Origin: an uncultured Christensenellaceae bacterium
GTDB taxonomy: Bacteria; Bacillota; Clostridia; Christensenellales; UBA3700
Assembly: GCA_910588015.1 (NCBI GenBank)
Contig: CAJUOK010000003.1
Location: 48,193-112,192 of the forward strand
Direction: 5' to 3'
DNA length: 64,000 nt
A program made the translations under genes and the position numbers. Under the pieces are notes generated by a model. The model was not told the origin of the DNA and did not search any database. It saw only the letters and a list, made by a program, of their open reading frames with translations. The first letter of the stretch is position 1; every line of letters begins with the position of its first letter. This document shows, piece after piece, positions 1-28,141 of this stretch.

Positions 1-3000
1 GAATCGGGAATCTCTATTTCCGTGAGAGACGCGCAATCGGCAAAAGCTTTATCGCCCACCTTTGTAACGGTATACTTTTTACCTTCGTATTCTACTTCCT
101 CCGCAATAACTACCTTTCCGCTGATTTTTTTCTTATCCTGCTCTCCCACTACCGCGCTGCCGTCGTTTAACAAATAATACTTGACTCCGTCTCTTTCTAT
201 ACCTGCAACGCAGTTCAATACGACCTGTCCGCCTCCTCGCAAATCGCTCCAACCGCTTTCCCATCCGTCGGGAATTTTATTTATTTCGCATAAAATTGCG
301 ACAGGATGTTCGTTAAGGTTAAATGCATTTCTTTCAATAAATTTTACGCTTTTTGGAATATATATTCCGTTGCATTCGCTATGCTCGAAACCGCTGTGAG
401 AGAAAGAATATTCCTTCACGCCGATTACGTCTTTGTCGTTGTATTGCTCGGGTATAACAATTATTTCCGCCTTTCCGGAACTTTTCGTAACCCAATACCC
501 CTCGTTTTCATTGTCATAGGACAGAGATAAGACGTAGCCGCGTCCGACGTACATTGTGGTCAATTCTGCTTTTGACAGTCCTACGACTATCGAACATCCC
601 AAAATAATCAAAAGGCTAAATGCAATATTAGCTCTTGCCACTTTATTTTTACCTACGCACGATGAATTTTTACCCAAACTCACCAATGCCATTATAACTA
701 TAGGCGGAACTACAAAAAAGAGCCCCAAAATAAACCAAATTGCTTGACCTCCGTACATACATACCCAAAATTCCAAAAACGGACTTATTCTCACAATTGC
801 AAGAATCATAGTCACCGTTATTGCTATTGCAAACAACACGGAGAAAGCCACCGCTACTTTATTGCTTCTTTTAATCTTGCGCTTACGCGTCGCCTGTCTT
901 TTTTTCTCGATGCTCTTCGCAACGTTTTCCTTCGCTTTTTGCGGTTGCAACTCAAGTATCCATCCTATGTCGTCTTTGAGTTGTCGACTCTTGGGGGCAG
1001 CCGCAGTGGCGAACGTCAAAGCGTATTGCCAGCGCTCGTCTTTAGTTATGTCATTGTGCAATTTATAAGTGTCTTCTTTTTTCGTGCATTTATAATCACT
1101 GAGTATTTCGTAATATGCGTCGTTTGCTTCATTAAGCAACGCCGAATATACCCTGTCAGCCAAGTTGGCGTCGACTATATCTTGCTTATCCATATAAACG
1201 CATTCGTCGAGATAATCTATGCATATCGGAAATTCGTTGAGCGATTTGATACTGTCCAAAGCGTAATACAAATTAAGATAAAGATTGTCTTGGCTTTCGG
1301 GATTCTTCTCCGTATAACTGTTGACTGCAGTAAAATAATCGTCGTCGCTCAACAGCGAGTCGACGTATCTGACAAGTCCCAACGGATTGGAAAGCGAATG
1401 ATTTACGAGACAGCGGTTGAAATAAGCGTTGTCGTCGTATTTGTCCATATCCAGCAACAAATCGTTGTATCTCGTAATAAAAGACAGTTTATCTTCGGAA
1501 AATAAAGAGTCTATAAATTCGTTGAGGTATCTGACGTATAATTCGTTTTGCTCCTTGGGTATCATCGTCAAAACAAAATCAAACAGCTTGCAACACATAT
1601 CGGTATGCGATTCAACCTTTTGACAGCACAATTCAAACAATTTATCGGCGGCAAATTGGTTGAAACCGTAAGCAAAAAGTTTGTCTTCTACCGCGGAATT
1701 ATTCTGCGCGGCGGAGCAATACGCAAATATTGCGTCGTAATCAAAATTCAAGCTTCCTTCAAAGACTTTCCACAAAGCTCCTTGATGTCCCTCGTCGGCG
1801 CTTAAAATATCCTCGTAATATTTTAAAGCCGCGCTTTTATCGATTGATTCCGCAAATTTGAGATTCATTTCGATATAACGCTCGGTGTCGTCGACGGTCT
1901 TTATAGCGACGTCGAAAATCTCGCTATCGGCGCGCTTGACGGCAAAATCAAACATAACTTTGGTCAAAGCGTCGACTGATTTTTTGGAACTTTCGGGCAA
2001 TTCTATATATTCTTTATAGGCGGAAAAATCCTTTTGCTTTTTTACCTTGTCAAAAAGCGTTTTGTAAAAAGACTTCCTGCGTTCAGATTCGCTAGACGAA
2101 GCTATCGCCTTTTCGAGATTGTCGAATCCCACCGTATTCGAATGAGAAGCGACAAATTCTTCGGCGTCTCTGCTTGCGTTTTCAGCCAAGAACAAATACC
2201 AATAAGCCTCGCTGTTGGATGGATTTTCCGCAACAAGGTTGGAACAAAATCTCTTGACGTTGTCAAAGTCGGCTCGCTTGAGAAAGTCTGCCGCAATGGC
2301 AAGCTTCGCCTTGTCGGATACGGTTATCTCCCCCTGTCCGACAGCTTCGAGCTGACGTTTGGTCACGCCTTGTTTTATGACGCTCTTTTTCTTATAAGAA
2401 GCCGTTGCGTATTCCTTGCGCGACAGCTCGGGAGCGACTTTTTTGGCATACCTGTCGACAAAATCTATTACTCTTTGCAACGCGTCGTAGGTGTTGAATT
2501 TGATACCCTGTATCTTGCCGCCTATGCCCGGCAGTCTCTCCACAATGCTGTCTGTAAATATCACGGTAAGAGAATCGCGCTGTTTTTCTTCTTGACTGAG
2601 CATATTGAGATAACGCGTATACTCGTTCTTTACCCAAGGAGTCTGCAAATAGCTCTCGTCGGTGCACACCAACAGCATACTTTGCGCGCTGTGCAAAGCG
2701 TAAAGTATCAACGCTTCGTAATCCGCGCCCGTCCTGTTCTTTATCTCCTCTTCGGAATAAAACGGCGAATATCCCGCGTCTTGCAATTTGTGATAAAGCG
2801 TATTGGCGATATGACTGTCTTCCGTGTGTCTGCCGCCGTCTTCCGTAACCTTGACGCAAATAAAACAGTCGTAATTGAGTCCGGATTTTTTCAACTCGTA
2901 AAATTGAGCGCGAATACTGTCGATTTCTTTTGCCTTGAGAGTATATTCCTTCTTTTGCTCCGGCGTGGCTAGTTCCAACGCCTTTTTGAAATTCTTGTCC

Positions 3001-3347
3001 TGCAAAAAAGACTTGTCGGTGACGTCGTGAACGATAGGCTGCATTCTGTCGTTGACGTGGTCTTTGAGATACTGCACTTGCGAACTTGCAAGCGCCATAC
3101 CCATATATGCCTCGGGCTCTTTTTTGTCAATTTCCGCCGCCTTTTGATATGCCGTATACGCTTCGTCGAATCGGCAAATGTCAAGTCCGTGCGCGCCCAA
3201 ATTCAAATACTGTTCCGCTTTGGACTGGCTTTTGGGCACAGTGTATACGCTCATACAGAATTCGCAGCGCAACACTCCGTCGACAGCTTTGGAATAATCC
3301 AGCTCTCCTCCGCAATTCTTACATTTATGTATATTATAATTATCCAT
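1..3347 (-). CDS. Large membrane protein with N-terminal zinc ribbon, TIR domain, helical/TPR-like region, 3 TM helices and C-terminal BspA-type leucine-rich repeats. Start codon at 3347; C-terminus lies beyond the window start.
   Basis: Reverse-complement translation from ATG (comp. 3345-3347; AGGGG RBS 7 nt upstream) runs stop-free to coordinate 3, about 1115 codons. N-terminus MDNYNIHKCKNCGG...LRCEFC is a zinc ribbon. Residues ~139-230 (YDCFICVKVTEDGG...LILYALHSAQSMLLVCTDESYLQTPWVKNEY) fit the TIR_2 pattern. Three hydrophobic helices follow around residue 780-880. The C-terminus has YTVTKVGDKAFADCASLTEIEIP-type BspA-like LRR repeats. It is absent from the ORF track, presumably because there is no in-window stop. 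Confidence 0.6.
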   Translation of the reverse strand, partial: MDNYNIHKCKNCGGELDYSKAVDGVLRCEFCMSVYTVPKSQSKAEQYLNLGAHGLDICRFDEAYTAYQKAAEIDKKEPEAYMGMALASSQVQYLKDHVNDRMQPIVHDVTDKSFLQDKNFKKALELATPEQKKEYTLKAKEIDSIRAQFYELKKSGLNYDCFICVKVTEDGGRHTEDSHIANTLYHKLQDAGYSPFYSEEEIKNRTGADYEALILYALHSAQSMLLVCTDESYLQTPWVKNEYTRYLNMLSQEEKQRDSLTVIFTDSIVERLPGIGGKIQGIKFNTYDALQRVIDFVDRYAKKVAPELSRKEYATASYKKKSVIKQGVTKRQLEAVGQGEITVSDKAKLAIAADFLKRADFDNVKRFCSNLVAENPSNSEAYWYLFLAENASRDAEEFVASHSNTVGFDNLEKAIASSSESERRKSFYKTLFDKVKKQKDFSAYKEYIELPESSKKSVDALTKVMFDFAVKRADSEIFDVAIKTVDDTERYIEMNLKFAESIDKSAALKYYEDILSADEGHQGALWKVFEGSLNFDYDAIFAYCSAAQNNSAVEDKLFAYGFNQFAADKLFELCCQKVESHTDMCCKLFDFVLTMIPKEQNELYVRYLNEFIDSLFSEDKLSFITRYNDLLLDMDKYDDNAYFNRCLVNHSLSNPLGLVRYVDSLLSDDDYFTAVNSYTEKNPESQDNLYLNLYYALDSIKSLNEFPICIDYLDECVYMDKQDIVDANLADRVYSALLNEANDAYYEILSDYKCTKKEDTYKLHNDITKDERWQYALTFATAAAPKSRQLKDDIGWILELQPQKAKENVAKSIEKKRQATRKRKIKRSNKVAVAFSVLFAIAITVTMILAIVRISPFLEFWVCMYGGQAIWFILGLFFVVPPIVIMALVSLGKNSSCVGKNKVARANIAFSLLIILGCSIVVGLSKAELTTMYVGRGYVLSLSYDNENEGYWVTKSSGKAEIIVIPEQYNDKDVIGVKEYSFSHSGFEHSECNGIYIPKSVKFIERNAFNLNEHPVAILCEINKIPDGWESGWSDLRGGGQVVLNCVAGIERDGVKYYLLNDGSAVVGEQDKKKISGKVVIAEEVEYEGKKYTVTKVGDKAFADCASLTEIEIPD

Positions 3348-3366
3348 ATTACCCCTGTTTACCGCT

Positions 3367-3699
3367 TCACAAAATGGCGTTTCTGTCGGCAATAACTACT
3401 TTAATCTCTTTTAGTATTTCTTCTGCGTGAGCGTCGGGTTTGCCGTCGGAGGCAACCAAAGCTCTTTTTAGACTTATAATTTGCTTATTTATGGATTTGT
3501 CGTACTCTACAACCTGCGATTTGTCGGAAGGACGCAGATACTTGAGTTGCTCTGCCGTAGCTGCAAGCTTTTCTTTAAACTCTTGACTGTCGCTTATCTC
3601 CTCTATTGCCACGTTGATAAACGACGCGTTGGTCGCGATAAGTTCTCTGTCTTCCTTGATTTTGTCTAAAGAATTGCCTCTCTTTTTGAAAAAACACAT
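3367..3699 (-). CDS. Hypothetical small protein (110 aa), likely co-transcribed with the flanking genes.
   Basis: ORF in track; 10-20 nt gaps to both neighbours on the same strand. Confidence 0.4.
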   Translation of the reverse strand: MCFFKKRGNSLDKIKEDRELIATNASFINVAIEEISDSQEFKEKLAATAEQLKYLRPSDKSQVVEYDKSINKQIISLKRALVASDGKPDAHAEEILKEIKVVIADRNAIL

Positions 3700-3709
3700 A
3701 TCCGCCTCC

Positions 3710-4735
3710 TTAAATCAACTTTCTGCCGCAACCGCAGCAAAACGCCGAATCATAGCCGTTGGCTTTGCCGCAATCGGGACAAACCACGGGATTTTTGCTT
3801 ACTCTCTTGCCGCACTTGGAGCAAAATACCGCCGTAGGCTCGTGCTCCGCTCCGCAATGCGGACAGACGTTTTGGTTTTGGGACTTTTCGTCTTTTGCGT
3901 TTTGCGATTTAAGCACTTCGTAGTAAGCAAGTTTGTCGTTGAGCTGCATATTGCGAATATACTTTTCTCTCTCCCACTGCTTGTCGTCTATACGCTCTTC
4001 TTCTTTGTATATCTTTTCGACTTTTGCCGCCGCAGCCTCCGCTTGAGCAACGCTTTCGATAGCGCGCACGTCCTCGTCGGACAAATCAAAGTCGGCTATC
4101 TTAAAATTGAGCACGCTCAATCCCCACTGTCTTTCAAACTCGGGACTCAACGCTTCTCCCATACTCTCTCCGATTGCCTTTTTGTTGGCGGTGAATTTGT
4201 CGTAAGTGAGTTTCTTTTGGCTCACCGTGTTTATGAACAAATCGGCGAACTCCGTTGCCACAGTCTCGCTGAACCTGCGTCTGAATTCGTTGAGATTGAA
4301 TTCTTTTTTTACTCCGACGACTTTGCGGAAAAACTGTTCGGGATTGGAGACGCACACGTCGAACTCGCCTCTGGCGCCCACCGAAACGACCTTTTTAGAA
4401 CCTTCGTCGCGATACTTCAGTCTGTTGGGAGTACCCCACTTGATGAGCACTCTGGTATCCTTGGGAATATAAATAACCTCGACCGAAAGTCCCGACTTCC
4501 AATTCTTAATCTCCTTTTTGTCGTCGAAAACGTCGTAAGTTCCACTCTTGTAATATCTCATATCGCCGCCGCCCTTTATGACTATGGCGTCGTGAGTGAT
4601 AGGCACTTCGAGACGCGCTTCCGAATCGGTGACTACGTCGTCGACTCTTACGAAAAGCACTTCGTTGTCGTCGAAATTTGCGTTGCAAAGGTCTTGTTGC
4701 AATTTGATTACCTGTTTTTGTTTTTTACCAAACAT
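3710..4735 (-). CDS. SPFH/band-7-like protein (COG4260-type) with C-terminal tandem zinc ribbons.
   Basis: 341 aa; C-terminus CPHCG...CSKCG...CPDCG...CCGCG gives four CxxC pairs. The N-terminal 250 aa resemble stomatin/SPFH-with-Zn-ribbon proteins. This call is from recall, not a database search. Confidence 0.45.
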   Translation of the reverse strand: MFGKKQKQVIKLQQDLCNANFDDNEVLFVRVDDVVTDSEARLEVPITHDAIVIKGGGDMRYYKSGTYDVFDDKKEIKNWKSGLSVEVIYIPKDTRVLIKWGTPNRLKYRDEGSKKVVSVGARGEFDVCVSNPEQFFRKVVGVKKEFNLNEFRRRFSETVATEFADLFINTVSQKKLTYDKFTANKKAIGESMGEALSPEFERQWGLSVLNFKIADFDLSDEDVRAIESVAQAEAAAAKVEKIYKEEERIDDKQWEREKYIRNMQLNDKLAYYEVLKSQNAKDEKSQNQNVCPHCGAEHEPTAVFCSKCGKRVSKNPVVCPDCGKANGYDSAFCCGCGRKLI

Positions 4736-4865
4736 ATTAATATCCCCGATATTTTATTATTATTTTCAAACGATTTAGACGGCAATTTCAACTTGCATAT
4801 CGCATAAAGTTGAGACTGTCCGGCTTTTTACATTAACGCAATATAAGTCTCGCTGATAATTTATT

Positions 4866-4995
4866 CCAAAAAAAGTATACTTTTACTGACCGAAATATAT
4901 TGCAAAATTATATCACGTGAGATATAATATTATTGAAAAAAATCGCCGTTTCGCGATATATTCTAATGAAGTCAGTAAAAGTATACTTTTTTTAG
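4866..4995. repeat. Perfect 23-bp inverted repeat (AAAAAAAGTATACTTTTACTGAC / GTCAGTAAAAGTATACTTTTTTT) separated by 80 bp that contain a TTGCAA-N17-TATAAT promoter-like sequence and a CACGTG-centred dyad.
   Basis: Read directly: 4868-4890 versus 4971-4993. It sits in the 420-bp AT-rich gap between the chromosomal cluster and the holin end of the phage-like element. Confidence 0.8.
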
Positions 4996-5044
4996 AAATT
5001 GCATAAAATTTTCTATTAAAATCATAAAGACAACAAAAAACAGC

Positions 5045-5072
5045 GGCAAAAAATAATTATGCCGCCGTTTAT
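5045..5072 (-). terminator. Rho-independent terminator downstream of the holin genes (minus strand: GCGGCA-loop-TGCCGC followed by TGTTTTTTGTTG).
   Basis: Reverse complement of 5045-5072 gives a 6-bp GC stem followed by a T-tract; about 90 nt after the holin stop at 5157. Confidence 0.5.
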
Positions 5073-5156
5073 ATTCTCTCGCCTATGTATAGGCGTCCTT
5101 GCCTTCGCGCAAAATACAGAACATATCAATTCTCTTTGCGCGCGGTCTTGCAAATT

Positions 5157-5393
5157 TTATTGCGCGGAGTTTTCGTCTGAATCTTCCTGTTCTTTTTCGG
5201 TAGCCGCCGTGTTTCCGCTTGCTTTGCCGCCGTTCTTTTTGAGAATTCCCGCTACAGCGAGCGCTCCCAAAAATCCCGTGACAATCTCCTGTATTAAAGG
5301 CACGTTGAATTTCAGCGCTACGCTCTGCAATATTGCCATAACGGCGCTTATCAACGATACCCAAAATTCATAACTCTTGAGTTTGGCTTTCAT
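5157..5393 (-). CDS. Holin, SPP1/XhlB-like (78 aa from the ATG at 5393; the track ORF starts earlier at 5432).
   Basis: MKAKLKSYEFWVSLISAVMAILQSVALKF...GALAVAGILKKNGG plus a charged C-tail. AGGAGG RBS 5 nt upstream of the ATG at 5391-5393. Two predicted TM segments. Confidence 0.5.
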   Translation of the reverse strand: MKAKLKSYEFWVSLISAVMAILQSVALKFNVPLIQEIVTGFLGALAVAGILKKNGGKASGNTAATEKEQEDSDENSAQ

Positions 5394-5665
5394 ACGACCT
5401 CCTTTGCCGCGCAATTGACTTTGTCTTGACATAGACTTTCTTCTCTCGCCGAATTTTCCATATACTTGCGAACTGTTCCGTTGACTTCGGCGACTTCTTC
5501 GTCGAGGTCTTTTAAATATCCGAGGTCTTGCGAAAGCGACGTTATCGTTTCTTGATACTTTTTTTCTCTCGTTCTGCTGTCTTTAAGCTCATAGATAAGC
5601 AACACGCAAAACAAAAGCGTCCAGATTCCGTCGCTTATCGCAAGCTCTATAATCTTATCCCACAT
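5390..5665 (-). CDS. bhlA: BhlA/UviB-family holin-like protein.
   Basis: MWDKIIELAISDGIWTLLFCVLLIYELKDSRTREKKYQETI matches the BhlA/UviB N-terminal TM plus coiled-coil pattern. Confidence 0.65.
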   Translation of the reverse strand: MWDKIIELAISDGIWTLLFCVLLIYELKDSRTREKKYQETITSLSQDLGYLKDLDEEVAEVNGTVRKYMENSAREESLCQDKVNCAAKEVV

Positions 5666-5666
5666 A

Positions 5667-6668
5667 TCAATTCTCCTTCTTGGCTATCTCGGTGATAAGT
5701 TTGCCGTAGTAATTGCCGAGATAGTTTTTCAACTGTCCGTTCTGTTGTAGCATTTGCAACGCGGCGTCTCGCGGTATCGACGAATAATACTCCAACGCAA
5801 GGTCGTATCTCTTTTGATAACTCTCGCCTTTTTGTCCGGCATAGCCGTATTTGTCTTCCATATTCTTGATTTCCAAAGCGTCTTTTTGCCTTTTGGCAAG
5901 CTGTTCTTCTATGGCTTTGGTTCTGTCTTCTATATACTTGGCTTCTTTTTCTTTGAGCGTATTGTTGTACTTGTCTATAGCCGCCACTTCTTTGGCTCTC
6001 TTGTCGAGCAAGCGCTCTATTTCGCTGTCGAGACGTTGAGCGTATTCCAAATCGAGATTTTGAATCGCCGTCGCCGCCTCTCCCTGCAATCTTTCAATTT
6101 CGGAATTTAGATTTTTGAGCTCCGCGCTCAATTTATCCTTAAGCGATTTGCTTTCGACTAGGCGCGAAGTTTCAGCGGCGTCGCTCTGACCTTGTTTTAT
6201 AGAAGAACGGTAAAGTCCTTTTTTGATAAGTTCTTTTTCCAATGCCTTTTGAAAATCCGCATAGTCTCTGTCTAGTTGCTCTTGCTTTTGACTATACTCG
6301 TCTTTGGCTACGTCTATCTTGGTTTCGACTCCCTCTTTCTTGGTATTCAAAGCGTCGTCGACTTTTTTCTTTTCGCCGTCAAGCAAGCCGTCGTATTTTT
6401 CTTTGGTTTTGCTCTTTATTCCCTCTTCGTCGTCGCCCGTATATTGCAGATACTCGAAAGTCTGCTCTTCTGGCAACACGTCGGAGAGGTCTTCATATCC
6501 CTCTTCGGGGTCGTATTTTATATTGTTTTTATATTCTTCTTCAAGCTCTCCAAGCTTGTCGTTAAGCTGTTTTTCTCCGTCGGCATACTGCGAAGTATCG
6601 ACTTCTTCGGGGGTCTTTTTTCCCGTAAAAAATTCTTTGACTTTTTTTGTAAAATCGTCCCAACTCAT
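5667..6668 (-). CDS. Coiled-coil, Glu/Lys-rich hypothetical protein (333 aa), phage late region.
   Basis: ORF in track; low-complexity coiled-coil composition. Confidence 0.4.
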   Translation of the reverse strand: MSWDDFTKKVKEFFTGKKTPEEVDTSQYADGEKQLNDKLGELEEEYKNNIKYDPEEGYEDLSDVLPEEQTFEYLQYTGDDEEGIKSKTKEKYDGLLDGEKKKVDDALNTKKEGVETKIDVAKDEYSQKQEQLDRDYADFQKALEKELIKKGLYRSSIKQGQSDAAETSRLVESKSLKDKLSAELKNLNSEIERLQGEAATAIQNLDLEYAQRLDSEIERLLDKRAKEVAAIDKYNNTLKEKEAKYIEDRTKAIEEQLAKRQKDALEIKNMEDKYGYAGQKGESYQKRYDLALEYYSSIPRDAALQMLQQNGQLKNYLGNYYGKLITEIAKKEN

Positions 6669-6692
6669 ATTTAACTCCTTATATTTATGAAT

Positions 6693-7064
6693 TCATTGGC
6701 TTACTTTGGCTGACCTGATTGCGCCGCTCAAACGAATACGCCCCGCCGTTATTCCTCCCGATAGAGCTATCTCTACGTTTCGCCAACCTCTTTCCAAAGA
6801 CAGCGGTCGAATGGTTATCAATCCCAATTGTCTGCCTGCGTTTTTGCCGTCGACAGTCACGTCGCATTGAGCCTCTCCGCCCTGCGACAGCGCTATTGCT
6901 TCAAGCTCCGCCTCGCCGCCTTGAGAATAAACGCGAAGACTTATCTTGCCTGCTCCGTCCGTCAACGGCATAACGAAATAATACGAGGATATTGCCGACG
7001 CAATGTGTCTTTCCAAACTGTCGGATAAATCTGCGACGGTCGATTGGATTTTCTTTATATTCAT
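6693..7064 (-). CDS. Hypothetical phage protein (123 aa).
   Basis: ORF in track, in a tight same-strand series. Confidence 0.35.
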   Translation of the reverse strand: MNIKKIQSTVADLSDSLERHIASAISSYYFVMPLTDGAGKISLRVYSQGGEAELEAIALSQGGEAQCDVTVDGKNAGRQLGLITIRPLSLERGWRNVEIALSGGITAGRIRLSGAIRSAKVSQ

Positions 7065-7073
7065 AATCTCTCC

Positions 7074-8501
7074 TTATTGCAAAAAATCTATCTCGAGTAT
7101 CGGCGGTCTTATCTCTTCGCGCATATTGTCGGAACGAATATAGAATACGAATTTGTCAGACTTGACGTATATATTTACTCTGTTTTCCGTAGGCGACAGG
7201 ATAAATTCGCGCCGCTCCCCGTTTGCCATTATTCCAAGCACGTACTGACAGCAAGCGCTGTATTCCACCGCTCTCACGACTTTAAAAATCGACGGTCTGT
7301 CAAAGTCTATCTCGCCGCTCTGCCAGTATTTTTGATACGGCGCGCCGAAATAAAGTCCGCTGCCGTCCAACTGAACGGGCGAAGCGCAATCTTGCGAAAG
7401 TCCTATGACTTTTCCCTCTCCGTAAGCCCCCACCGTCTTGAGGTCGTAGAGAGATATTCCGCGCATAAATTCCACAGATTTTTCGGCTATGTCCAATATC
7501 AAAATTGTGTTGTTGGCGCGACTTTGCGAAAACACTCCGTAGTCGCACTCTTTCTCGTCTGTAAACGACATTATATAGCGACCGTGGGCGTAACACGCCG
7601 ACGCGTCTTTGAATCCGCCGTCGAACAAACCGTCAACTCCGACGTTGATTTTCGTCACGGCATATCCGTCGAAAAGATATATCCCGTCTTGGCTTGCAAA
7701 GGCTATGTATTCGCCGCATTCTTTGACCGAATCGGCAAATATCTTCCCTCCCGACGCATATACTTTCTTCATAGAAAACTGCGTTTGGTCGGCAAATGCC
7801 GTCAACCTGTAAATGCCGTAATCGCAAAAGATATAGAGATAATTTTCAAAGCTCTTGACGGTGTTGACGCTGCCCAAAGAACCGTCGAAATTTATGTAGC
7901 CGCCTTCTTCCAGTGAAACGTTCCAATTATAAGGGTCGAAATCGTCGCTGAATCTCAAAGAATTTCGCTTTCCCTCGACGACGGCGTATATTCTCTCGTA
8001 ATGAACGCACATATCCAGTATGCGCGCGTCGGCTTGAACGTCGACCAACTCTCCGTCGGCAAGAGCTTTGAGTCCCTTCTCTCCCGAAAGCAAGAGCAAG
8101 TCTTTATCTTCGTAAAGATAATTGACTCCCACGTCGAATATTCCGTCGGTCTCTATATGCTTCCATTGAGTCTCTCCGCAAACCGTATATTCCAATCCCC
8201 CTCGGTGAGACAGCGCAAAAGCCGTTTTGAGTTGTCCGCCCAAGTCGACTTTGGTAACAAAAAGCCTTTTTTTGCCTTCGACTGACGGCATCGGCGGAAT
8301 CGCCGTTTCGTCGACTTCCAACGCGCTTATGCCCAACGGATTGATTAGAATTCCGTTTTTGAATTTAAAATTATACGCGCAATCTACGTAATCGCAAGGC
8401 AGATTTCTCGACGCCTTTGTTTCGTCGAAGCCCTTGAACCCGGACAGCAAAACTCTCTTTCGCCGAGGCTTGGCAAGAGCGTAATTTTTGTCGTAAAACA
8501 T
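7074..8501 (-). CDS. Hypothetical beta-rich phage structural-like protein (475 aa); possible receptor-binding or tail-fibre protein.
   Basis: Repeated G-x-Y-x-F-D-G-like segments (YINFDGSLG, YLFDGYAV, GLFDGGFKD). Lies between a holin pair and small phage-like ORFs. No domain recognised with certainty. Confidence 0.35.
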   Translation of the reverse strand: MFYDKNYALAKPRRKRVLLSGFKGFDETKASRNLPCDYVDCAYNFKFKNGILINPLGISALEVDETAIPPMPSVEGKKRLFVTKVDLGGQLKTAFALSHRGGLEYTVCGETQWKHIETDGIFDVGVNYLYEDKDLLLLSGEKGLKALADGELVDVQADARILDMCVHYERIYAVVEGKRNSLRFSDDFDPYNWNVSLEEGGYINFDGSLGSVNTVKSFENYLYIFCDYGIYRLTAFADQTQFSMKKVYASGGKIFADSVKECGEYIAFASQDGIYLFDGYAVTKINVGVDGLFDGGFKDASACYAHGRYIMSFTDEKECDYGVFSQSRANNTILILDIAEKSVEFMRGISLYDLKTVGAYGEGKVIGLSQDCASPVQLDGSGLYFGAPYQKYWQSGEIDFDRPSIFKVVRAVEYSACCQYVLGIMANGERREFILSPTENRVNIYVKSDKFVFYIRSDNMREEIRPPILEIDFLQ

Positions 8502-8502
8502 A

Positions 8503-9054
8503 TCAGTACCACCTTCTGGGTTTAATTTTGACGTTGCCCTTTTTTCTTACCGCAGTGCGCATATCTTCTTTGAATCTATCCGAATACATAACCGATTGCT
8601 CATACATTCCGCAAATCATACTGTATTCGGCGCATATGCCCAAAGCCAACGTCTTTGCGCCCACCGTCGGAGATATAGGACATTCTTCTTCGATATCTAC
8701 CTCCAACGGCGCGTAAGAATAAAGTACGTCTGCTCTTTTCATATCCTTGTTGGCAACGGCGCAATGCGTCGGCGTGAGATAAAAATTGGATTCCAATCCG
8801 CTGTCAGCGTCTACGACTTTGCGAATTTGCGCAGACTTGTGAAGCAAATTTTCGAGAAAAATTTTTCCGTCATCAACATCCACTCTCTCTTCTTCAAGCA
8901 AAGGCGCATACTCCGCGGCTATTTCTTGGATGACCAAATTGGCGCACTTGACAAGTAATTTCAGCTTGGGATGCTGCGCCGTTTGAGCGTTGACGCTCGC
9001 GTCTTCGTCGCCGAGATACGTCAGGCAAATCCTTATAGCTTCTTTGAGTTGCAT
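8503..9054 (-). CDS. Hypothetical phage protein (183 aa).
   Basis: ORF in track; stop/start abutting its neighbour. Confidence 0.35.
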   Translation of the reverse strand: MQLKEAIRICLTYLGDEDASVNAQTAQHPKLKLLVKCANLVIQEIAAEYAPLLEEERVDVDDGKIFLENLLHKSAQIRKVVDADSGLESNFYLTPTHCAVANKDMKRADVLYSYAPLEVDIEEECPISPTVGAKTLALGICAEYSMICGMYEQSVMYSDRFKEDMRTAVRKKGNVKIKPRRWY

Positions 9055-9069
9055 ATTCCCTCCTCAAGG

Positions 9070-9384
9070 TCACAGGCGCAGACCGCCCATAGCCTTTTCT
9101 ATTATTTCTTGCCTTTTTTGTTCTTCGACGCGGGCGTTGTTGGCGTCGATTTGCGCAAGTATCTTTTCTTTGTTTTTTACACTGCTTTGCACTGCAAAAT
9201 CCAACGCCCTTTTGTCGAGATTCTTATAAGGCAAAACTGCTTGAAAAGACGGAGACTTTGCCGAATTGTGCAATTCGTATCTGCAAGTTCCCCTGTCGTA
9301 ATAGATTTTGTAATTTTCGTCTATGCTCTTTATTCTTGCCGATATATCGAACAAATCGTCGGTTATCTCCGTCAGTCTTTCCAT
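9070..9384 (-). CDS. Hypothetical protein (104 aa).
   Basis: ORF in track. Confidence 0.35.
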   Translation of the reverse strand: MERLTEITDDLFDISARIKSIDENYKIYYDRGTCRYELHNSAKSPSFQAVLPYKNLDKRALDFAVQSSVKNKEKILAQIDANNARVEEQKRQEIIEKAMGGLRL

Positions 9385-9399
9385 AATTGCCTCTTATTT

Positions 9400-9615
9400 T
9401 CAGCTCACGGTGATACCGCTGAGTTTTGCCTGACCGATAGGCTTATCGCATATCATATCGGCGTACTTGACGAGAGTTGCACCGTAAGTTGCGCTGCCCG
9501 CCTTTTGCTTGATGACTTTGCCGTTGTCGCCCTCGAGCCACCGCTTGACCTGTGAGAAGTCTAAACAGAAATAAGGGCGATAGATAAAGGTAAAAACGGG
9601 CATCTCCCACCCCAT
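9400..9615 (-). CDS. Hypothetical small protein (71 aa or shorter); first gene of the late-like fragment.
   Basis: ORF in track; follows a strong terminator. Confidence 0.25.
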   Translation of the reverse strand: MGWEMPVFTFIYRPYFCLDFSQVKRWLEGDNGKVIKQKAGSATYGATLVKYADMICDKPIGQAKLSGITVS

Positions 9616-9621
9616 AAAAGT

Positions 9622-9652
9622 CTAGAAAAAACAAAAAAGGCTGCCCAAGGGA
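9622..9652 (-). terminator. Strong rho-independent terminator ending the cargo operon (minus strand: AGGCTGTCCC-TTG-GGCAGCCT followed by TTTTTTGTTTTTT).
   Basis: Read directly from the reverse complement of 9622-9652; it starts 17 nt after the stop of the 470-aa gene. Confidence 0.6.
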
Positions 9653-9668
9653 CAGCCTAAATTGTGAT

Positions 9669-11081
9669 TTATTTCTTATAAACAGAGAGAGTTTTCGTAA
9701 TATCGGAAGTGAGGTTTTTGCCACTCCTCTTTTTGTCGCTCGATGTTTTTGCCAAGCTGAACCAATATTTACTGCCTTTATAAACCAGTTTGTAGTGGGT
9801 ATTATCGCTCGTAATTTCAAACCCCACACGCTTTAATTCAGCCAGCTCTTTTGCGGAAAGTTCCTCGCCATCCGCAAAGACGGACTTTACCACATCGAGC
9901 ATTTCCTTGCCGTTTCCTATTATTTTATTATGCGCCAACAGGTCAGTTATAAGCTCTTTCTGCCGAGTGTCTTTTGAACCGCAGTTCGACAGTGCCTTCT
10001 GCAAAATCGACACAAGCAAATCGTGCTGTTCACCATCAAAGAACTCTGGAATGGATGAAGGTTCTATTATCGTCTGCACCGCTTCGCTTTTTGTGAGCGC
10101 AGTTTGGAGACTGTTGCACTTTGCGGTCAAAGACATATTTTCTTGAACCAAGGCAGCAATTCTCGCCTCCGCCTTTTTTAATTTTTCATCTAGGGTTTCG
10201 TTATCACCAAGTGCTTCTTCTGCCAAGGCTGCACTCTCTTTCGCTTCCTTTCGAACTTGCTCGGCGTGTAATGCTTCCCATGTAGGCGCATCCGTATCCA
10301 CGGCAGAAGTTACAAAACGCTGAACTTCATTTGCTATCTGCTTATCAAGGGGCGCGCCCAGGTATGCATTCCGCTTCCGAAACTGTCTAGGTCTTCCGCC
10401 CTTGGTGTAAATACAAACTGCACCATTGAAGGGTGTTGCGTGGTTTGCCCTATCTTTCAAAAGCCGAGTGTATTCGTTATCGCAAACCACCACATACGCA
10501 AACCCCGCAAGTTTCTTTGACAGCGTATATTCCTCTATTTCCGTTGCCCGTGTATCGAAGTATGTAGTAGCTAAAACCAACGGAAGCTCATCGTCATATT
10601 CTTCCCGTATTGCTCCCGCTATCCAGTCTATCAGCTCATTCGTAGGTTCAACGGGTTTTGAAGTTATAGGTACTTTCGGCTGTTTAAGGAAGCCGCTATC
10701 AACGAAGGAGCGTATAACATCCGTGCGCATCTCGGGAGCTTCGTCAAAACGAGTAGCATCACGGGAACAGTCAATGTGGAAATAAACTATCTTTCCAACG
10801 GAACTGCATTCAAAGATAATCTCCGTAGTCCAAGTCTGCTCGTGGAACACTTGAGCAATCTTGAAAAGCGTGTAAACTTTTCCGTCTTTTTCTATACGGG
10901 AAGTGTCCGCCGTGCAATACTCCGCTTCCAAGTGTACACCGATTTTATCAGCGCAGGCTTCAAGTTGCTCTGCCACTGCCTTGCACGGTCCAGCCTCTGT
11001 CAACCACTTATTAATAATATTGAAATACTCGCTTTCGGAAAAGGAGTCGACCATTTTAACTTTCGTAGAAACTACACGCAT
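9669..11081 (-). CDS. Hypothetical protein (470 aa), no recognisable domain; start overlaps the stop of the RNase III-like gene.
   Basis: ORF in track; acidic coiled-coil segment in the middle; last gene before the terminator. Confidence 0.5.
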   Translation of the reverse strand: MRVVSTKVKMVDSFSESEYFNIINKWLTEAGPCKAVAEQLEACADKIGVHLEAEYCTADTSRIEKDGKVYTLFKIAQVFHEQTWTTEIIFECSSVGKIVYFHIDCSRDATRFDEAPEMRTDVIRSFVDSGFLKQPKVPITSKPVEPTNELIDWIAGAIREEYDDELPLVLATTYFDTRATEIEEYTLSKKLAGFAYVVVCDNEYTRLLKDRANHATPFNGAVCIYTKGGRPRQFRKRNAYLGAPLDKQIANEVQRFVTSAVDTDAPTWEALHAEQVRKEAKESAALAEEALGDNETLDEKLKKAEARIAALVQENMSLTAKCNSLQTALTKSEAVQTIIEPSSIPEFFDGEQHDLLVSILQKALSNCGSKDTRQKELITDLLAHNKIIGNGKEMLDVVKSVFADGEELSAKELAELKRVGFEITSDNTHYKLVYKGSKYWFSLAKTSSDKKRSGKNLTSDITKTLSVYKK

Positions 11082-12137
11082 CAGTCGTTCCTCGCGTTCT
11101 CGTGATTAAGAATGGAGCGGAGCATTTCGTATGCGGCTAACCGTTTAGCTTCCTTTTTCGAGCTTGCTTCATCATAATAGCAATCTTCATATTCTTCAAT
11201 ACTACATTCGCAAGTCCATACGGGATTACCATCGTCATCGTGGTCTTCTTGGAACTCATAAATAGGAAAAGAGAAATACCCCTTTTGTGCAAGCTCCTGA
11301 AGCTGACTCACTGCCTTCTCGAGAGTGGGTTCATCAATTTCATCTTCCATCGTCCGAAGCAAACCTTGCTCGTCCAAGTAATCATACGCAAGCTCTGCCG
11401 CAGCCATTCTTGCCAGGCTCTTGGAATACCCAAAGCCAACAAACGGCGCACCATTATCTATGCGTAATTCACAAACGATATCCCCTTCGCCTTGCTCCAT
11501 ACGCCTTCTAGTTCCAACTTGTATAGAGCGCATATTGCAGTGATATTCATACCTTGAATTATAGAATTTATAAAACGGCAACTCTCCTACACGCTTCTGC
11601 TGCCACTGCTGAATAATGGAAACATAATCCTGGTCTGTGCCGAAGCCATTTTCCAAGTAACAATCAATGTGGAGCATCATTTCTACCGCATCTTGCATTG
11701 AATCCATATCCCAATCACTGTCAAGGGCAACTGCGCCGAGTATGGCTTCAAACAAGTCCTCTTTTACATTCGTTTTGGACATTATTTTTTCTGTCCCCCT
11801 TGCCCATTATCAAATAATCTGTAAAACCCATCTCATCAATGCGTTCTGCCAACATCTTACTTTCCACAAGGTGCTTCTTGAACTCCGTGAGCTTCCCCTC
11901 ATTGTGTTCACACTCGTACTCTTTGCCATCGTTGATTTCGCCGTAATACTCCGTCAAAACCTTAACGATTACCAAGTCGAGAACCTTATCGCCTATAAAC
12001 TCCAACACTTCATTGTTTTCGCCATCGTGCGTTTCTTGCGTATAACTTTTCCGCGTAAACGCTTGCTGCAACAACAATCTGTTCTTGAACTCGTACCCGA
12101 TTTGTGATTCAATTTCATCGTACTGTTCATCCTTCAT
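11081..12137 (-). pseudogene. rnc-like: RNase III homolog (catalytic domain plus two dsRBDs) split into two overlapping ORFs (11748..12137 and 11081..11782) by a frameshift at a T6/A6 homopolymer (11785-11790).
   Basis: N-ORF: IGYEFKNRLLLQQAFTRKSY...NEVLEFIGDKVLDLVIV is the RNase III signature, ending ...GKGDRKNNVQ. C-ORF: KEDLFEAILGAVALD is the second catalytic motif, followed by two dsRBD motifs (GFGYSKSLARMAAAELAYDYL and EASSKKEAKRLAAYEMLRSI). Removing one A from the A6 run joins the frames with the expected motif spacing. Confidence 0.6.
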
Positions 12138-12399
12138 AATAAAAATACCTCCTGTGTTTTTTCACAGAGGGCATAGAAAGAGCCTGACGAAATATAGACT
12201 ACGCCCTTGTAGCCTCGCCAGGCATCCACTCGATAAATGGTGTTATATAAATCACTCGTCCTTGATTCCAGTCACTTGCATAACAGGTCACAAATCCAAT
12301 ATGCTTTACATCCAACTATTTATGTCGCAATGCCTTCTCTGTACTTTCATTATATCAAACTCGACATAATCCGTCAAGGGGTATGTGCCATATTTCTCA

Positions 12400-12448
12400 A
12401 AATGTAAAAAAGTAAACGTCAAAGGAGTCGGCATTTCTGTCGACCCCT
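12400..12448 (-). terminator. Putative terminator after gene 12470..12949 (minus: AAGGGGTCG-loop-CGACTCCTT followed by a T-rich tract).
   Basis: Imperfect stem around the SalI site, followed by TGACGTTTACTTTTTTAC on the minus strand. Confidence 0.3.
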
Positions 12449-12469
12449 TCTTCATCTTTATGTATGACA

Positions 12470-12949
12470 TTAAAAGTATTCGATGCTGTCCAAGAACTCC
12501 TTAACGTTCGGCATTTCTAAAACCTCAAAGATAGTTTTAGAAAAACTTCCTTTCCTGTTTGCCATCAACTGAACGCTGACAGACACTTGGTTTTGGTTGA
12601 GTTTGTTGCGAGGGAAGTCATACCGTTCTTCGTACATATCACTGTATGCGCCACCATAATAATGCACCGATAACGCTGTACCCTTTCCGCGGGTAATAGG
12701 TTTGAAATCGCCTTTTATATGCAAATCGCAATCTCCTGCAAATTCCTCCATAGCTTCCTTTGCGGTCAACTCGGCATTTTCAAATTCTATGTCGATATAA
12801 ATTATTCCACCTTTTACTACCCGCTTATCCGACTTAAACTCTAGCAGATGCACTCCACAACCCGTAGGCTGAAGAGTAAGGTAAAAATCTTCGGGCAACG
12901 CAAACGAGATGTTTGATGCCACCAATTTACCATTTTTTACTCTTACCAT
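12470..12949 (-). CDS. Hypothetical protein (159 aa).
   Basis: ORF in track. Confidence 0.4.
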   Translation of the reverse strand: MVRVKNGKLVASNISFALPEDFYLTLQPTGCGVHLLEFKSDKRVVKGGIIYIDIEFENAELTAKEAMEEFAGDCDLHIKGDFKPITRGKGTALSVHYYGGAYSDMYEERYDFPRNKLNQNQVSVSVQLMANRKGSFSKTIFEVLEMPNVKEFLDSIEYF

Positions 12950-13094
12950 TTGTGATACTCCATTTTCGATAAAAACAGTCAGGGTTCGATATTCTTTCTC
13001 TTTCTGAAACTATCGCATTTTGATATAATTATTACAATCAGTATCTTCTCCCGCCGTCATTACTCTTTGGCGGCTTTTTTGCTGTTATCGAACG

Positions 13095-13337
13095 CTACAC
13101 AACTTCTGTGACAGTGAGTTGGAACACCTGCCCGTTTTCCATCCTCATCAACACACCCTTTGTGTTCTTCGCAAAAGTGCCGCAAAAATAGTCATCCAGC
13201 AACGGATAAATCTGCATTGCTAAATCAAACCCGTTGATTTTAGTACCTTGCATCGCTGTCTCAAACTGCTCTTTGTCTTCTTCGGTGTGAATGTAAGGTT
13301 TTCCTTCCATAACCTTTAACTCCTTAATTTTATTCAC
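13095..13337 (-). CDS. Hypothetical small protein (80 aa), divergent from the HTH regulator.
   Basis: ORF in track. Confidence 0.35.
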   Translation of the reverse strand: MNKIKELKVMEGKPYIHTEEDKEQFETAMQGTKINGFDLAMQIYPLLDDYFCGTFAKNTKGVLMRMENGQVFQLTVTEVV

Positions 13338-13360
13338 TTTTTTGCGCGCTTCAAGTGTAC

Positions 13361-13408
13361 TTCAATTATACTCTCCCATCGGCGTAACACGCAACTGAAA
13401 ATTGCGCA
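13361..13408. promoter_or_regulatory. Nested inverted repeats: a 9-bp perfect IR (CTCTCCCAT ... ATGGGAGAG) enclosing a CGCAA-N9-TTGCG IR. Candidate operator in the divergent promoter region.
   Basis: Read directly; located 38 nt upstream of the HTH regulator start. Confidence 0.4.
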
Positions 13409-13445
13409 AATGGGAGAGAATAAAATGTAGAAAAAGGACTAGTTT

Positions 13446-13889
13446 ATGGATAATTTGTCGAAACTCTCTGAAATGCTCGATTCGCTAATGTTCGAGCGCG
13501 AATTAAACCTTACGCAACTTGCCAAAGAAATAGGTATCGAAAAAGCAACCTTGAGCCGTTACCTTCACGCTTTAATGACGCCTTCCGTTGAAAATCTCGT
13601 GAAGTTAGCGGATTATTTTCAATGCACTACTGATTACCTATTGGGGAGAGAAAATGAAAACTATCCCTCTGCTTTCAAGCCGTGTCCACCGTTTTCAGAA
13701 CAGTTACTTGTATTGAAAAAACACTTTAACTGCCCTTGGTGGAATTTCTACAAAACCGCGCACATTTCAAGTTCTCGCTTTTATGAGTGGAAGAACGGCA
13801 AACGCACACCAACCCTAGATTGCATAATTTTTCTAGCAGATGGTTTCGGCTGCACTGTGGATTTCATCATTGGAAGAACGAAAATGTAA
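13446..13889 (+). CDS. Transcriptional regulator with two tandem XRE-type HTH domains.
   Basis: LTQLAKEIGIEKATLSRYLHA...VENLVKLADYFQCTTDYLLG, and a second HTH (ISSSRFYEWKNGKRTPTLDCIIFLADGFGCTVDFIIG). It is the only plus-strand gene inside the minus-strand island. Confidence 0.6.
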   Translation: MDNLSKLSEMLDSLMFERELNLTQLAKEIGIEKATLSRYLHALMTPSVENLVKLADYFQCTTDYLLGRENENYPSAFKPCPPFSEQLLVLKKHFNCPWWNFYKTAHISSSRFYEWKNGKRTPTLDCIIFLADGFGCTVDFIIGRTKM

Positions 13890-13901
13890 CTATAGATTTC
13901 T

Positions 13902-13950
13902 AGCCGTGATAAGGGGTGCTTAATCCTCTTACCACGGCTTTTCTTTCTAA
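13902..13950 (+). terminator. Rho-independent terminator after the HTH gene (AGCCGTG ... CACGGCT with a nested stem, then TTTTCTTTCT).
   Basis: Read directly. Confidence 0.45.
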
Positions 13951-14112
13951 TTCCCTTTCCACTCCACCAGATAAATCTGTATGCAGGCTGACATATAGGG
14001 CGGATGTTCCCTGTGGTTTCTTGGGCGTGGATATTTGCACTTACCACGCAGCTCCGGTGCCTTTGGAAAGGGTTATATACTCGCCGTGCAAAGCGAATAT
14101 AGCAAATTTTAC

Positions 14113-14283
14113 TTATCCATCACCTTCATTGACATTATCTTTTTTTTCGATTTCTTTATCAATCGCTTCATCGGCTTTCTTTCTGTTCATTTCCATAAAA
14201 ACTGACACAAGCAGGTCAACAAACGCTTCTTCCGAATTTGGATTATGAAACCGAAAATTAAATTGCTGTTTTTCCTTTTTCAT
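14113..14283 (-). CDS. Small ORF (56 aa), translationally coupled (ATGA) to the macrodomain gene stop.
   Basis: ATG at comp. 14281-14283 overlaps the TGA of the upstream gene. Below the 60-aa track cut-off. Product MKKEKQQFNFRFHNPNSEEAFVDLL... Confidence 0.25.
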   Translation of the reverse strand: MKKEKQQFNFRFHNPNSEEAFVDLLVSVFMEMNRKKADEAIDKEIEKKDNVNEGDG

Positions 14284-14762
14284 AATTTCCAAATTTCAAC
14301 CTGCCACTCATCTTCGGCAAACTCTTCTTCGATTATTCTCTGTACTTTTATCCAATCTCCGCCCGCAAGTCCACATCCAATATGGTCTGGAAATCCAATC
14401 TTAAACCCCTTGCCCCCAAACTTGCCGTGCGCTGAATTATAATCGTTGATTTCCGTTTTCAGCTCAATTAAGCATTTTCGGAAAGCATCGTAATCGGTAT
14501 GAATCACACCCCTGGGTCTATAATCAAACTGCGAATATAGATTAATAATGAAACGGAATTCTTGTTGAATATAAACTACATCAATCTTCCCGAGCCGATT
14601 CCCCTTGGAAGCAAACGAAGTCATAAAAACATCGTAAACCTGTGGATATTTATTTCGTATAGCTTTTGCGATGCCAGCGTTCATCACCCCTTTGCAGTTT
14701 ACCTGGTGGCATATTACATTGCAGTCGCTTGCAAGTAAATCTCCCCTTTTATACGAAACCAC
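14280..14762 (-). CDS. Macrodomain protein of the TARG1/OARD1/DarG type (ADP-ribosyl hydrolase-like), stand-alone.
   Basis: GDLLASDCNVICHQVNCKGVMNAGIAKAIRNKYPQV and IGFPDHIGCGLAGGDW align with TARG1 [27 protein letters not shown]...PRIGCGLDRL. The likely true start is a GTG at 14760-14762, 6 nt after an AAGGAGG RBS; the track ORF extends to 14828. Confidence 0.75.
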   Translation of the reverse strand: MVSYKRGDLLASDCNVICHQVNCKGVMNAGIAKAIRNKYPQVYDVFMTSFASKGNRLGKIDVVYIQQEFRFIINLYSQFDYRPRGVIHTDYDAFRKCLIELKTEINDYNSAHGKFGGKGFKIGFPDHIGCGLAGGDWIKVQRIIEEEFAEDEWQVEIWKL

Positions 14763-14763
14763 T

Positions 14764-15987: not shown

Positions 15988-15999
15988 TGCCGTACTCTC

Positions 16000-17435: not shown

Positions 17436-17439
17436 CCTT

Positions 17440-19724: not shown

Positions 19725-19760
19725 CGGTGTATTGCTTTCAATATGTTGTTAGCCGTAGAA

Positions 19761-20126: not shown

Positions 20127-20180
20127 TTTGAATTACCTCCAAAAATTTTGTTATCTCAATTATAGTCCGCAGTAGATATT

Positions 20181-20252: not shown

Positions 20253-20265
20253 GGAGGTGCTTGTA

Positions 20266-28114: not shown

Positions 28115-28141
28115 TTCTACCTCCTATTTTTGGTATGACAC

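Follow-up and report, generated by a model that had tools for sequence, protein, structure and literature searches.

TIR domains are a component of innate immunity that animals, plants and bacteria share. The enzymatic TIR families include SARM1, RUN1/RPS4-type proteins, ThsB, TIR-STING, TIR-SAVED and SPARTA TIR-APAZ; they combine a constant TIR effector with variable sensor parts, and oligomerisation activates them. To our knowledge, all characterised bacterial TIR systems sense intracellular events. Toll-like receptors (TLRs) have leucine-rich repeats (LRRs) outside the cell, a transmembrane (TM) segment and a TIR domain in the cytoplasm. The stretch of DNA analysed here (the window, 64,000 nucleotides of contig CAJUOK010000003.1) begins with a chromosomal three-gene operon of an uncultured Christensenellales-like gut Clostridium. 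It encodes an SPFH-zinc-ribbon protein, a 110-residue protein (ORF110) and a large zinc-ribbon-TIR-LRR protein which resembles a TLR in mirror image. The reading that we favour, tentatively and by analogy, is that the large protein acts as a membrane-anchored, SPFH-associated TIR NADase switch and belongs to a large family with variable sensor parts.

The first-pass annotation of this DNA had described the large protein as a TLR in reverse order. This is apt for the layout, which is analogous; the protein is not a member of the TLRs. Its TIR domain is N-terminal and its LRRs are C-terminal, it has three TM helices as against one, and its repeats are of the LRR_5 type. It also adds a zinc ribbon and a TPR solenoid of about 440 residues, and it keeps the NADase-type glutamate, whereas most TIR domains of TLR pathways are scaffolds. 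Common descent of the whole architecture with TLRs is not supported; the analogy is one of layout only. With the enzymatic TIR NADases the protein shares the TIR fold and a glutamate at the start of helix alpha-C, within a W-x-x-x-E motif. It differs from them in being embedded in the membrane and in having, N-terminal to the TIR domain, a zinc-ribbon-TPR extension which is specific to this family. The operon contains no ThsA, STING, SAVED, Argonaute or NB-ARC partner. The large protein matches no catalogued bacterial TIR defence system in PADLOC or NCBIfam, Thoeris included: there is no match to a system-specific model, and the only partners are the SPFH protein and ORF110. In the full-text literature, no description of a bacterial TIR protein with BspA-type LRRs or with an SPFH partner was found; a paper on a Christensenellaceae peptide (PMC13114140) concerns the TIR domain of human TLR4 and was set aside. 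TIR effectors with variable sensor parts are thus already known. What is new is this architecture and its pairing with an SPFH protein, in a large and unstudied family of gut Clostridia.

The other parts of the operon also have described counterparts. In Bacillus subtilis, the Band 7 protein YdjI links PspA to the zinc-ribbon membrane protein YdjG (10.1101/2021.02.15.431232). The SPFH protein described here resembles YdjI in being a soluble Band-7-type protein encoded together with membrane proteins and zinc-ribbon elements; it differs in carrying the zinc ribbons within its own chain and in having a TIR protein as its partner, and no PspA homologue was detected. We take YdjI to belong to the Band_7_1 subfamily; the report on it says only 'Band 7'. 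SPFH proteins are also known to pair with proteases, as in HflK/C-FtsH and stomatin-NfeD, and the AAA ATPase and serine protease encoded beside relatives of this operon (see below) echo such partnerships. The LRR_5 repeats are those of the modular BspA-like surface proteins of oral and gut anaerobes. Most of these are adhesins that have a signal peptide and are secreted or anchored, whereas here the LRRs form the C-terminal third to half of a polytopic protein with a large, enzymatic-type cytoplasmic part.

Translation of the open reading frames (ORFs) places three co-directional genes on the minus strand: the SPFH/Band_7_1 gene (3710-4735, 341 residues), ORF110 (3367-3699) and the large gene (1-3347). 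The spacers are 10 nt and 19 nt long. The large ORF begins with an ATG at 3347, preceded by AGGGG, and is open to base 3, giving 1115 codons; the start of the window removes its 3' (C-terminal) end. An exact-sequence look-up of the SPFH protein returned nine contigs, four of which (L001-L004) contain the whole downstream TIR gene. The complete protein has 1870 residues (P0001, 99% identical over the common part), and the window holds the 5' 60% of the gene, codons 1-1115. An AT-rich intergenic region (4736-5156, read on the minus strand) lies between the operon and phage holin genes; it contains a terminator-like hairpin, then promoter-like hexamers and a GGGGA ribosome-binding site for the SPFH gene, of which the terminator-like and promoter-like elements are consensus matches. 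None of the three ORFs is a chance pattern, as each protein has conserved homologues in other genomes. The arrangement first described for the operon, with a 110-residue protein and an SPFH protein with four CxxC pairs ahead of a TIR gene cut by the window start, is confirmed.

The anatomy of the large protein was taken from Pfam, hydropathy, conservation and an AlphaFold2 model of residues 1-960, built on 54 homologues, with a mean predicted local distance difference test score (pLDDT) of 87.7. To assign the TIR fold, an alignment of the TIR domain only and a 330-residue model were made as well. All of the following features are on the minus strand. Residues 1-40 (3228-3347) form an N-terminal zinc ribbon with C9, C12, C28 and C31; the cysteines are kept in at least 90% of the 54 homologues and of a set of 48, and both models give two beta-hairpins. 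The interval between ribbon and TIR domain (residues 41-156; 2880-3227) has 54-55% mean identity over homologues. Profile, secondary structure and conservation assign to it one TPR unit, two beta-hairpins and a long helix: residues 44-86 match consensus TPR proteins in a profile search, and the model places the TPR unit and hairpins at 41-110, followed by the helix. The TIR domain (residues 157-300; 2448-2879) is the best-conserved section of the protein, and a poorly ordered linker follows it in the model. Residues 343-785 (993-2321), earlier annotated as a helical region, are modelled as a cytoplasmic TPR-like alpha-solenoid in blocks with pLDDT 90-97; its Foldseek matches are TPR proteins only (Ctr9, APC subunits and the TPRs of SPY/OGT). 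Mean identity declines along the protein, from 49-59% in the ribbon-TPR-TIR head to 36% in the solenoid and 15% in the TM region; the ectodomain is variable or absent.

Beyond the solenoid, hydropathy, charge counts and the model define a stalk helix with a basic cluster and then three TM helices (residues 786-925; 573-992). In the model, a 60-residue helix continues into TM1; two more TM helices and then beta structure follow. The hydrophobic helices lie at about 831-853, 862-892 and 908-925 and are the only strongly hydrophobic segments of the protein; the corresponding model helices span 788-851, 868-891 and 900-924. Residues 926-1115 (3-572) are the first of five BspA-type LRR modules and the beginning of the second, predicted to be extracytoplasmic. 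There is a partial LRR_5 match at residues 1093-1114. LRR_5 (PF13306) scores 20.7 bits in the window copy, below the cut-off of 27.7, because the window includes no more than the first module and the start of the second; in full-length P0001 it scores 355.9 bits over 6 stretches. Five modules make up the region after TM3, and a 'C..P.GW..W' cap ends each of them (residues 1020, 1332, 1460, 1591 and 1842). Every part of the domain order proposed at first, from zinc ribbon through TIR and three TM helices to BspA-type LRRs, is thus recovered.

The TIR assignment follows from Pfam TIR_2 (PF13676), which scores 42.5 bits over residues 175-288 (gathering cut-off 28) and 41.6 bits in full-length P0001, and from the predicted structure, a flavodoxin-like alpha/beta fold with five parallel strands. 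A profile built from residues 1-960 recovered TPR proteins only, and Foldseek with the 960-residue model recovered TPR solenoids only; neither returned the TIR domain. In a single-sequence search of the PDB, the only match of the TIR segment, to a HEAT repeat, was spurious. The candidate catalytic glutamate is Glu242, in the motif P-W-V-K-N-E-Y-T-R; its codon is at 2622-2624 on the minus strand, and the codons were verified in the window. W238, V239, N241, E242, Y243 and R245 are invariant in the alignments of 54 and of 48 homologues. When the TIR-only profile was compared with PDB sequences, the best match was the TIR domain of the NADase RUN1 (6o0w), with 'WvknE' aligned on 'WCLDE'. A glutamate at this position is needed for NADase activity in SARM1, plant and bacterial TIR domains (PMC7075850). 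Judged by profile, modelled fold and conservation, the large protein belongs to the TIR superfamily and carries the hallmark residue of the enzymatic subclass.

Topology was predicted from hydropathy and the positive-inside charge bias, which is a heuristic. The protein has 11 lysines and arginines in the 23 residues before TM1, none in loop 1 and 4 in loop 2. Averaged over the 54 homologues, the number ahead of TM1 is 5.3; loop 1 has 0.2, loop 2 has 3.1, and the segment after TM3 has 1.2. There is no N-terminal signal peptide, and 830 soluble residues precede TM1. An odd number of TM helices, the charge bias and the long soluble part without a signal peptide together point to an N-in, C-out orientation. 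By this prediction the N-terminal 830 or so residues (zinc ribbon, TIR domain and TPR solenoid) would be cytoplasmic, and about 945 residues of BspA-type LRR modules would face outward. The positive-inside rule therefore puts the TIR domain and the LRRs on opposite sides of the membrane, as had been proposed.

The head of the protein defines a large family. A HMMER scan with residues 1-330 matched 5,386 cluster representatives at E <= 1e-3 and 2,599 at E <= 1e-30; clusters were defined at 50% identity, and there are at least 2,599 of them. The match begins near the N-terminus in all 150 of the hits listed, which are from proteins of 420-3,167 residues. TM segments (called by a hydropathy threshold) and LRRs were surveyed in about 220 members. 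Most close homologues have three TM helices, and many stop within a few residues of TM3; other members have 6-12 TM helices, and about 40% have no TM segment. The residues after TM3 number 946 in P0001 as against 189 in P0002. P0070 has the head, a second ribbon, a proline-rich linker and LRR_5 repeats with no TM segment, and P0073 and P0077 are alike; the LRRs of these three would be cytoplasmic. As many members have no ectodomain and some LRR_5 members have no TM segment, a trigger common to the whole family cannot lie in the LRRs. The LRRs outside the cell are an optional accretion and not the core of the family, which tells against the part of the earlier interpretation that rests on an LRR sensor. 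Locus L041 (1-19257) carries five head-module paralogues in 20 kb (1467, 852, 1459, 520 and 1054 residues), the first four with LRR_5 repeats; they surround g337, a p187 homologue (see below) and a 390-residue single AAA ATPase. This array resembles a receptor-repertoire locus. As far as can be judged from sequence, the combination of a constant enzymatic-type head, hypervariable tails and paralogue arrays is typical of conflict and recognition systems.

A surface protein with such repeats might instead be an adhesin. Its LRRs would bind host, mucus or other microbes, and the cytoplasmic part would anchor, cluster or regulate the display, with the TIR domain as a non-catalytic oligomerisation scaffold; a more exotic version would have a host-directed TIR effector packaged into vesicles. 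The five LRR_5 modules of BspA-like type, the gut commensal lineage of the organism and the great difference in ectodomain length between close relatives are in keeping with this, as are sister cluster genes for zinc-ribbon-TM proteins with Flg_new and GLUG repeats. However, selection is strongest on the cytoplasmic TIR head and not on the ectodomain, which many members lack altogether. Anchoring would not need 830 cytoplasmic residues with a conserved active-site motif, and no secretion signal that would export the TIR domain is present. An adhesin is accordingly quite improbable.

The SPFH gene product consists of an SPFH (Band_7_1) domain, a coiled coil and a C-terminal double zinc ribbon. 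Its Pfam scores are 66.5 bits for Band_7_1 (PF13421; cut-off 24), 32 for Band_7 (cut-off 23.6), 34.6 for Zn_Ribbon_1 and 30.8 for DZR. Four CxxC pairs at the C-terminus (C291/294, C305/308, C319/322 and C333/336; 3716-3874, minus strand) make up the two ribbons, and all eight cysteines are invariant in 11 orthologues. The protein is 56-74% identical in 10 species. At least 246 homologous SPFH clusters were found, all from Clostridia metagenome-assembled genomes where the source is named. There is no hydrophobic segment in the protein (maximum 19-residue Kyte-Doolittle value 0.49), and it lacks the N-terminal TM helix or hairpin of stomatin or HflK. Its sequence is thus what one expects of a soluble or peripheral protein, which YdjI is reported to be.

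The ORF110 protein is small and helical, has no TM segment and begins with 'MCFFKK'. Its gene is a conserved partner of the SPFH gene and lies directly 3' of it in most loci. A word-indexed search found only three relatives, and conservation was established by an iterative hidden Markov model (HMM) search of the fetched loci. Identity over 9 orthologues is 26-44%, with the motifs DRELI..N, LKYLxPS and IADRN and an N-terminal MCxFKK. No Pfam, PHROG or PADLOC family matched ORF110 above threshold. A match of ORF110 to BcrAD_BadFG (23.6 bits; cut-off 31.5) and the weak LmuB and Cas12f matches obtained with the operon proteins were put down to composition or zinc ribbons and set aside. Scans of the three operon proteins with PADLOC, PHROGs and NCBIfam gave nothing informative. 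Short hydrophobic-basic N-termini are common to three soluble partners, with 'MCFFKK' in ORF110 (3681-3699 in the window), 'MWPFKSK' in p198 (a small protein of related clusters, described below) and 'MFGKKQ' in SPFH orthologues. Such N-termini may be membrane-binding tips. In loci L009 and L014, the ORF110 homologue has an N-terminal TM helix instead.

Related loci were gathered through the SPFH gene from species-representative genomes and metagenomes, and all their ORFs were scored with profiles of the cluster components; 15 distinct loci had enough downstream sequence to be counted. A zinc-ribbon-TIR gene is in the same co-directional cluster as the SPFH gene in 11 of the 15. The order is SPFH-ORF110-TIR in the window, L017/L030, L011 and L008, and SPFH-TIR in L012/L033 and L035. 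In L010, L029, L036, L013 and L014 there is a long cluster with SPFH, ORF110, p198, p187 and a double AAA ATPase besides the TIR gene. Extended SPFH-ORF110 clusters are located at L010:11380-15575, L029:4082-8163, L036:11400-14627, L038:2793-10121 and L007:3541-7625 and in L013 and L014. The conserved small proteins p198 (about 198 residues, starting 'MWPFKSKYDKLTREEVV') and p187 (about 187 residues, coiled-coil) are accompanied by an ATPase of 680-710 residues with a CbbX-like first and a Cdc48/p97-like second domain. All long-cluster loci except L036 also encode a zinc-ribbon-Trypsin_2 protease. Compared with the long cluster, the operon in the window looks reduced.

When the look-up was anchored on the TIR protein, the SPFH gene was found alongside in five cases (P0002, P0004, P0044, P0058 and P0035), and the lists of the top 120 TIR and the top 120 SPFH homologues are joined by 13 exact size matches of the longest contig. 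The two genes are still together in a locus with 40% TIR identity, where they lie between lacZ and hrcA-grpE-dnaK in surroundings that are not phage-like. Co-occurrence of the two genes in other genomes, which the first-pass annotation had left for a survey, is thus found. The linkage is strong and facultative in both directions. Four of the 15 loci have no TIR gene (L007, L015, L009 and L026): L009 is a long cluster without it, and in L026 the SPFH-ORF110 pair stands alone, with ribosomal and other core genes coming next. Conversely, the TIR paralogues P0017, P0033 and P0019 are solo genes among housekeeping genes, without an SPFH gene. In L007 (7661-10306) and L015 (11060-13279), the genes in the position of the TIR gene encode zinc-ribbon-TM proteins that lack a TIR domain and have surface repeats of the Flg_new (Listeria-Bacteroides repeat) and GLUG types. 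The N-terminal zinc ribbon may be a common handle which the cluster machinery recognises.

These neighbourhoods bear on a second alternative, envelope homeostasis. SPFH-ORF110, with p198, p187, the AAA ATPase and the protease where present, would serve housekeeping membrane organisation, repair or quality control. Zinc-ribbon membrane proteins, the TIR-LRR protein included, would be its clients or cargo. Rather than serving immunity, the TIR domain would take part in physiological signalling or in assembly. The system would be analogous to YdjI-PspA-YdjG, HflKC-FtsH or stomatin-NfeD. The SPFH protein is far more conserved than its TIR neighbour, it occurs with ORF110 in the absence of a TIR gene or together with the zinc-ribbon-TM-Flg_new surface proteins, and the flanking genes are housekeeping genes. 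The AAA ATPase resembles the segregase Cdc48/p97, no defence-system HMM matches, and YdjI provides a precedent for a Band 7 bridge between PspA and a zinc-ribbon membrane protein (10.1101/2021.02.15.431232). What homeostasis leaves unexplained is a TIR head with an invariant catalytic-type glutamate as the best-conserved part of thousands of paralogues, and tandem arrays of TIR paralogues with variable LRR tails. Nor was any match to PspA, Snf7 or another stress family found for ORF110, p198 or p187. We consider homeostasis, the chief rival of the switch, somewhat unlikely; it and the switch fit the data better than the adhesin and prophage explanations do. If it were true, a TIR enzyme at work in membrane homeostasis would be new for both protein families.

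The TIR switch which we prefer would work as follows. The solenoid would respond to a change that begins in the LRR ectodomain or the membrane and reaches it by way of the TM bundle and the long stalk helix, and the TIR heads would then be free to self-associate. A composite active site around Glu242 would cleave NAD+, causing either its depletion or an ADP-ribose-derived signal. The outcome would be growth arrest or some other cell-wide response, most plausibly in conflict with phages or competitors. The soluble SPFH-zinc-ribbon protein and ORF110 would form a membrane-proximal oligomeric scaffold which confines or concentrates the TIR protein; in relatives, the same scaffold would work with the Cdc48-like double AAA ATPase and the zinc-ribbon trypsin-like protease. 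A gated switch is proposed because self-association activates NAD+ cleavage in SARM1, plant TIRs, ThsB, TIR-STING and TIR-SAVED. We infer the NADase activity, the gating, the role of SPFH and the conflict context from what was computed, namely anatomy, TIR fold, conserved glutamate, charge-bias topology, linkage and family size. A flavour of conflict comes from the head clusters with C-terminal parts of very different lengths and from arrays of up to five paralogues; it comes also from the cluster partners, namely the AAA ATPase and a protease with the same kind of N-terminal ribbon.

Several observations weigh against a switch of this kind. The alignment with RUN1 is weak (E 0.069). The catalytic glutamate is necessary and insufficient for activity, and some non-enzymatic TIR domains of TLRs keep it (PMC7075850). 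The two sides of the membrane were assigned by hydropathy and charge bias. PADLOC returned no family for the TIR protein and two weak, non-defence-like matches for the SPFH protein, and the NCBIfam Thoeris model ThcB4 gives the TIR protein 17.2 bits (cut-off 220). The optional ectodomain, the TM-less LRR_5 forms and the solo TIR paralogues count on the same side; the loci lie among housekeeping genes, outside recognisable defence islands. SPFH-ORF110 pairs without a TIR gene and the high conservation of the SPFH protein would also fit a housekeeping membrane function. The antiphage and surface-sensing roles that the first-pass annotation had combined in an abortive-infection system find no support here, in view of the PADLOC result, the solo paralogues and the optional LRRs.

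If surface LRRs are indeed coupled through the membrane to an enzymatic-type TIR domain, the layout of TLRs arose independently in bacteria; one would then have to ask whether bacteria can detect a threat before it enters the cell. The family is large, is confined to poorly studied, mostly uncultured gut Clostridia, and has been missed by current defence-system catalogues. Its conserved link with SPFH proteins, and in relatives with a Cdc48-like ATPase and a protease, would tie membrane microdomains to TIR signalling. A bolder extension, which we regard as unlikely, is an unrecognised membrane-centred immune-like system of gut Clostridia. It would consist of a constant zinc-ribbon-TPR-TIR head on hypervariable sensor tails, with LRRs outside (three-TM forms) or inside (TM-less forms), together with an SPFH scaffold, Cdc48- or Vps4-like AAA ATPases, a zinc-ribbon protease and possibly ESCRT-III-like small proteins. 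The two LRR forms would then be a bacterial parallel to TLR-like and NLR-like receptors.

A relation of p187 and p198 to ESCRT-III, with an MIT domain in the AAA ATPase, is a lead only; neither Pfam nor a PDB profile search supported it. The C-terminus of p187, '..IEKELEELKKKM' (L010:11979-12539), has what we take to be a likeness to the ESCRT-III MIM1 motif, for which hhalign, too, gave no support. The N-terminus of the AAA ATPase, 'NETFNLYYNKAKEC..' (L010:12555-14681), presumably resembles an MIT domain in the same sense. Comparison by hhalign gave no sign of a relation between p187, p198 and ORF110. In L041 (8009-9779), the p187 homologue is paired with the single AAA ATPase of 390 residues, which is the size of Vps4.

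The remaining alternative is that the operon is a prophage moron, cargo of the adjacent prophage beyond its lysis genes, providing superinfection exclusion or abortive infection to the benefit of the phage. In the window the operon is 420 bp downstream of holin genes, as it is in L001-L003 and L017, and two divergent loci, L017 and L038, have a phage-type tyrosine integrase gene as the immediate upstream neighbour of the SPFH gene. The L017 integrase gene (7336-8256; the TIR protein of this locus is 61% identical) sits between the holin and SPFH genes. The cassette there is outside the phage, because the integrase separates the phage lysis genes from the SPFH gene; after the cassette comes a housekeeping gene for an aspartyl/asparaginyl-type tRNA synthetase (Pfam tRNA-synt_2). 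The L038 integrase (175-1107) is on the same strand as the SPFH gene and is 46% identical to that of L017. Next to the TIR-SPFH operon there may therefore be an attachment site of a phage or island, and a phage family probably uses it. No tRNA gene that would mark such a site was found in the window. Orthologous clusters occur at phage-free sites: in the lacZ/hrcA-grpE-dnaK interval, beside ABC transporters and beside rpsL. No relatives of the SPFH protein or the TIR head were found in 2.9 million IMG/VR contigs or in 50,697 phage records (INPHARED), nor any SPFH relatives in a plasmid collection. The 420-bp spacer has terminator-like and promoter-like elements of its own. The cassette is chromosomal and not phage cargo. 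A moron is highly improbable, and was rejected on the L017 integrase, the phage-free loci and the absence from viral and phage collections. The nearness of two mobile elements, at first taken as a hint of defence, is likewise incidental: the same cassette is found among housekeeping genes, and in none of the viral, phage and plasmid collections.

The phage-like block itself is directly upstream of the operon, at 5157-20500 in the window. It includes two holin-type genes (5157-5432 and 5390-5665), a DUF7934 gene (5667-6668), a gene for a 475-residue virion or amidase-like protein (7074-8501), a helix-turn-helix repressor-like gene (13446-13889, plus strand) and NinI-like phosphatases (14280-17435). 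Further on, a 635-residue ORF (21562-23469, plus strand) matches a PHROG integrase family. Three consecutive ORFs of 507, 537 and 521 residues follow on the minus strand (26591-31411); the 507-residue protein matches a PHROG integrase family, and the 537- and 521-residue ORFs are putative serine recombinases, to judge by size and position. A second prophage-like block, with tail-type ORFs of 912 and 1070 residues, extends over 32-64 kb. These recombinase and second prophage-like features are presumably the two mobile elements referred to above.

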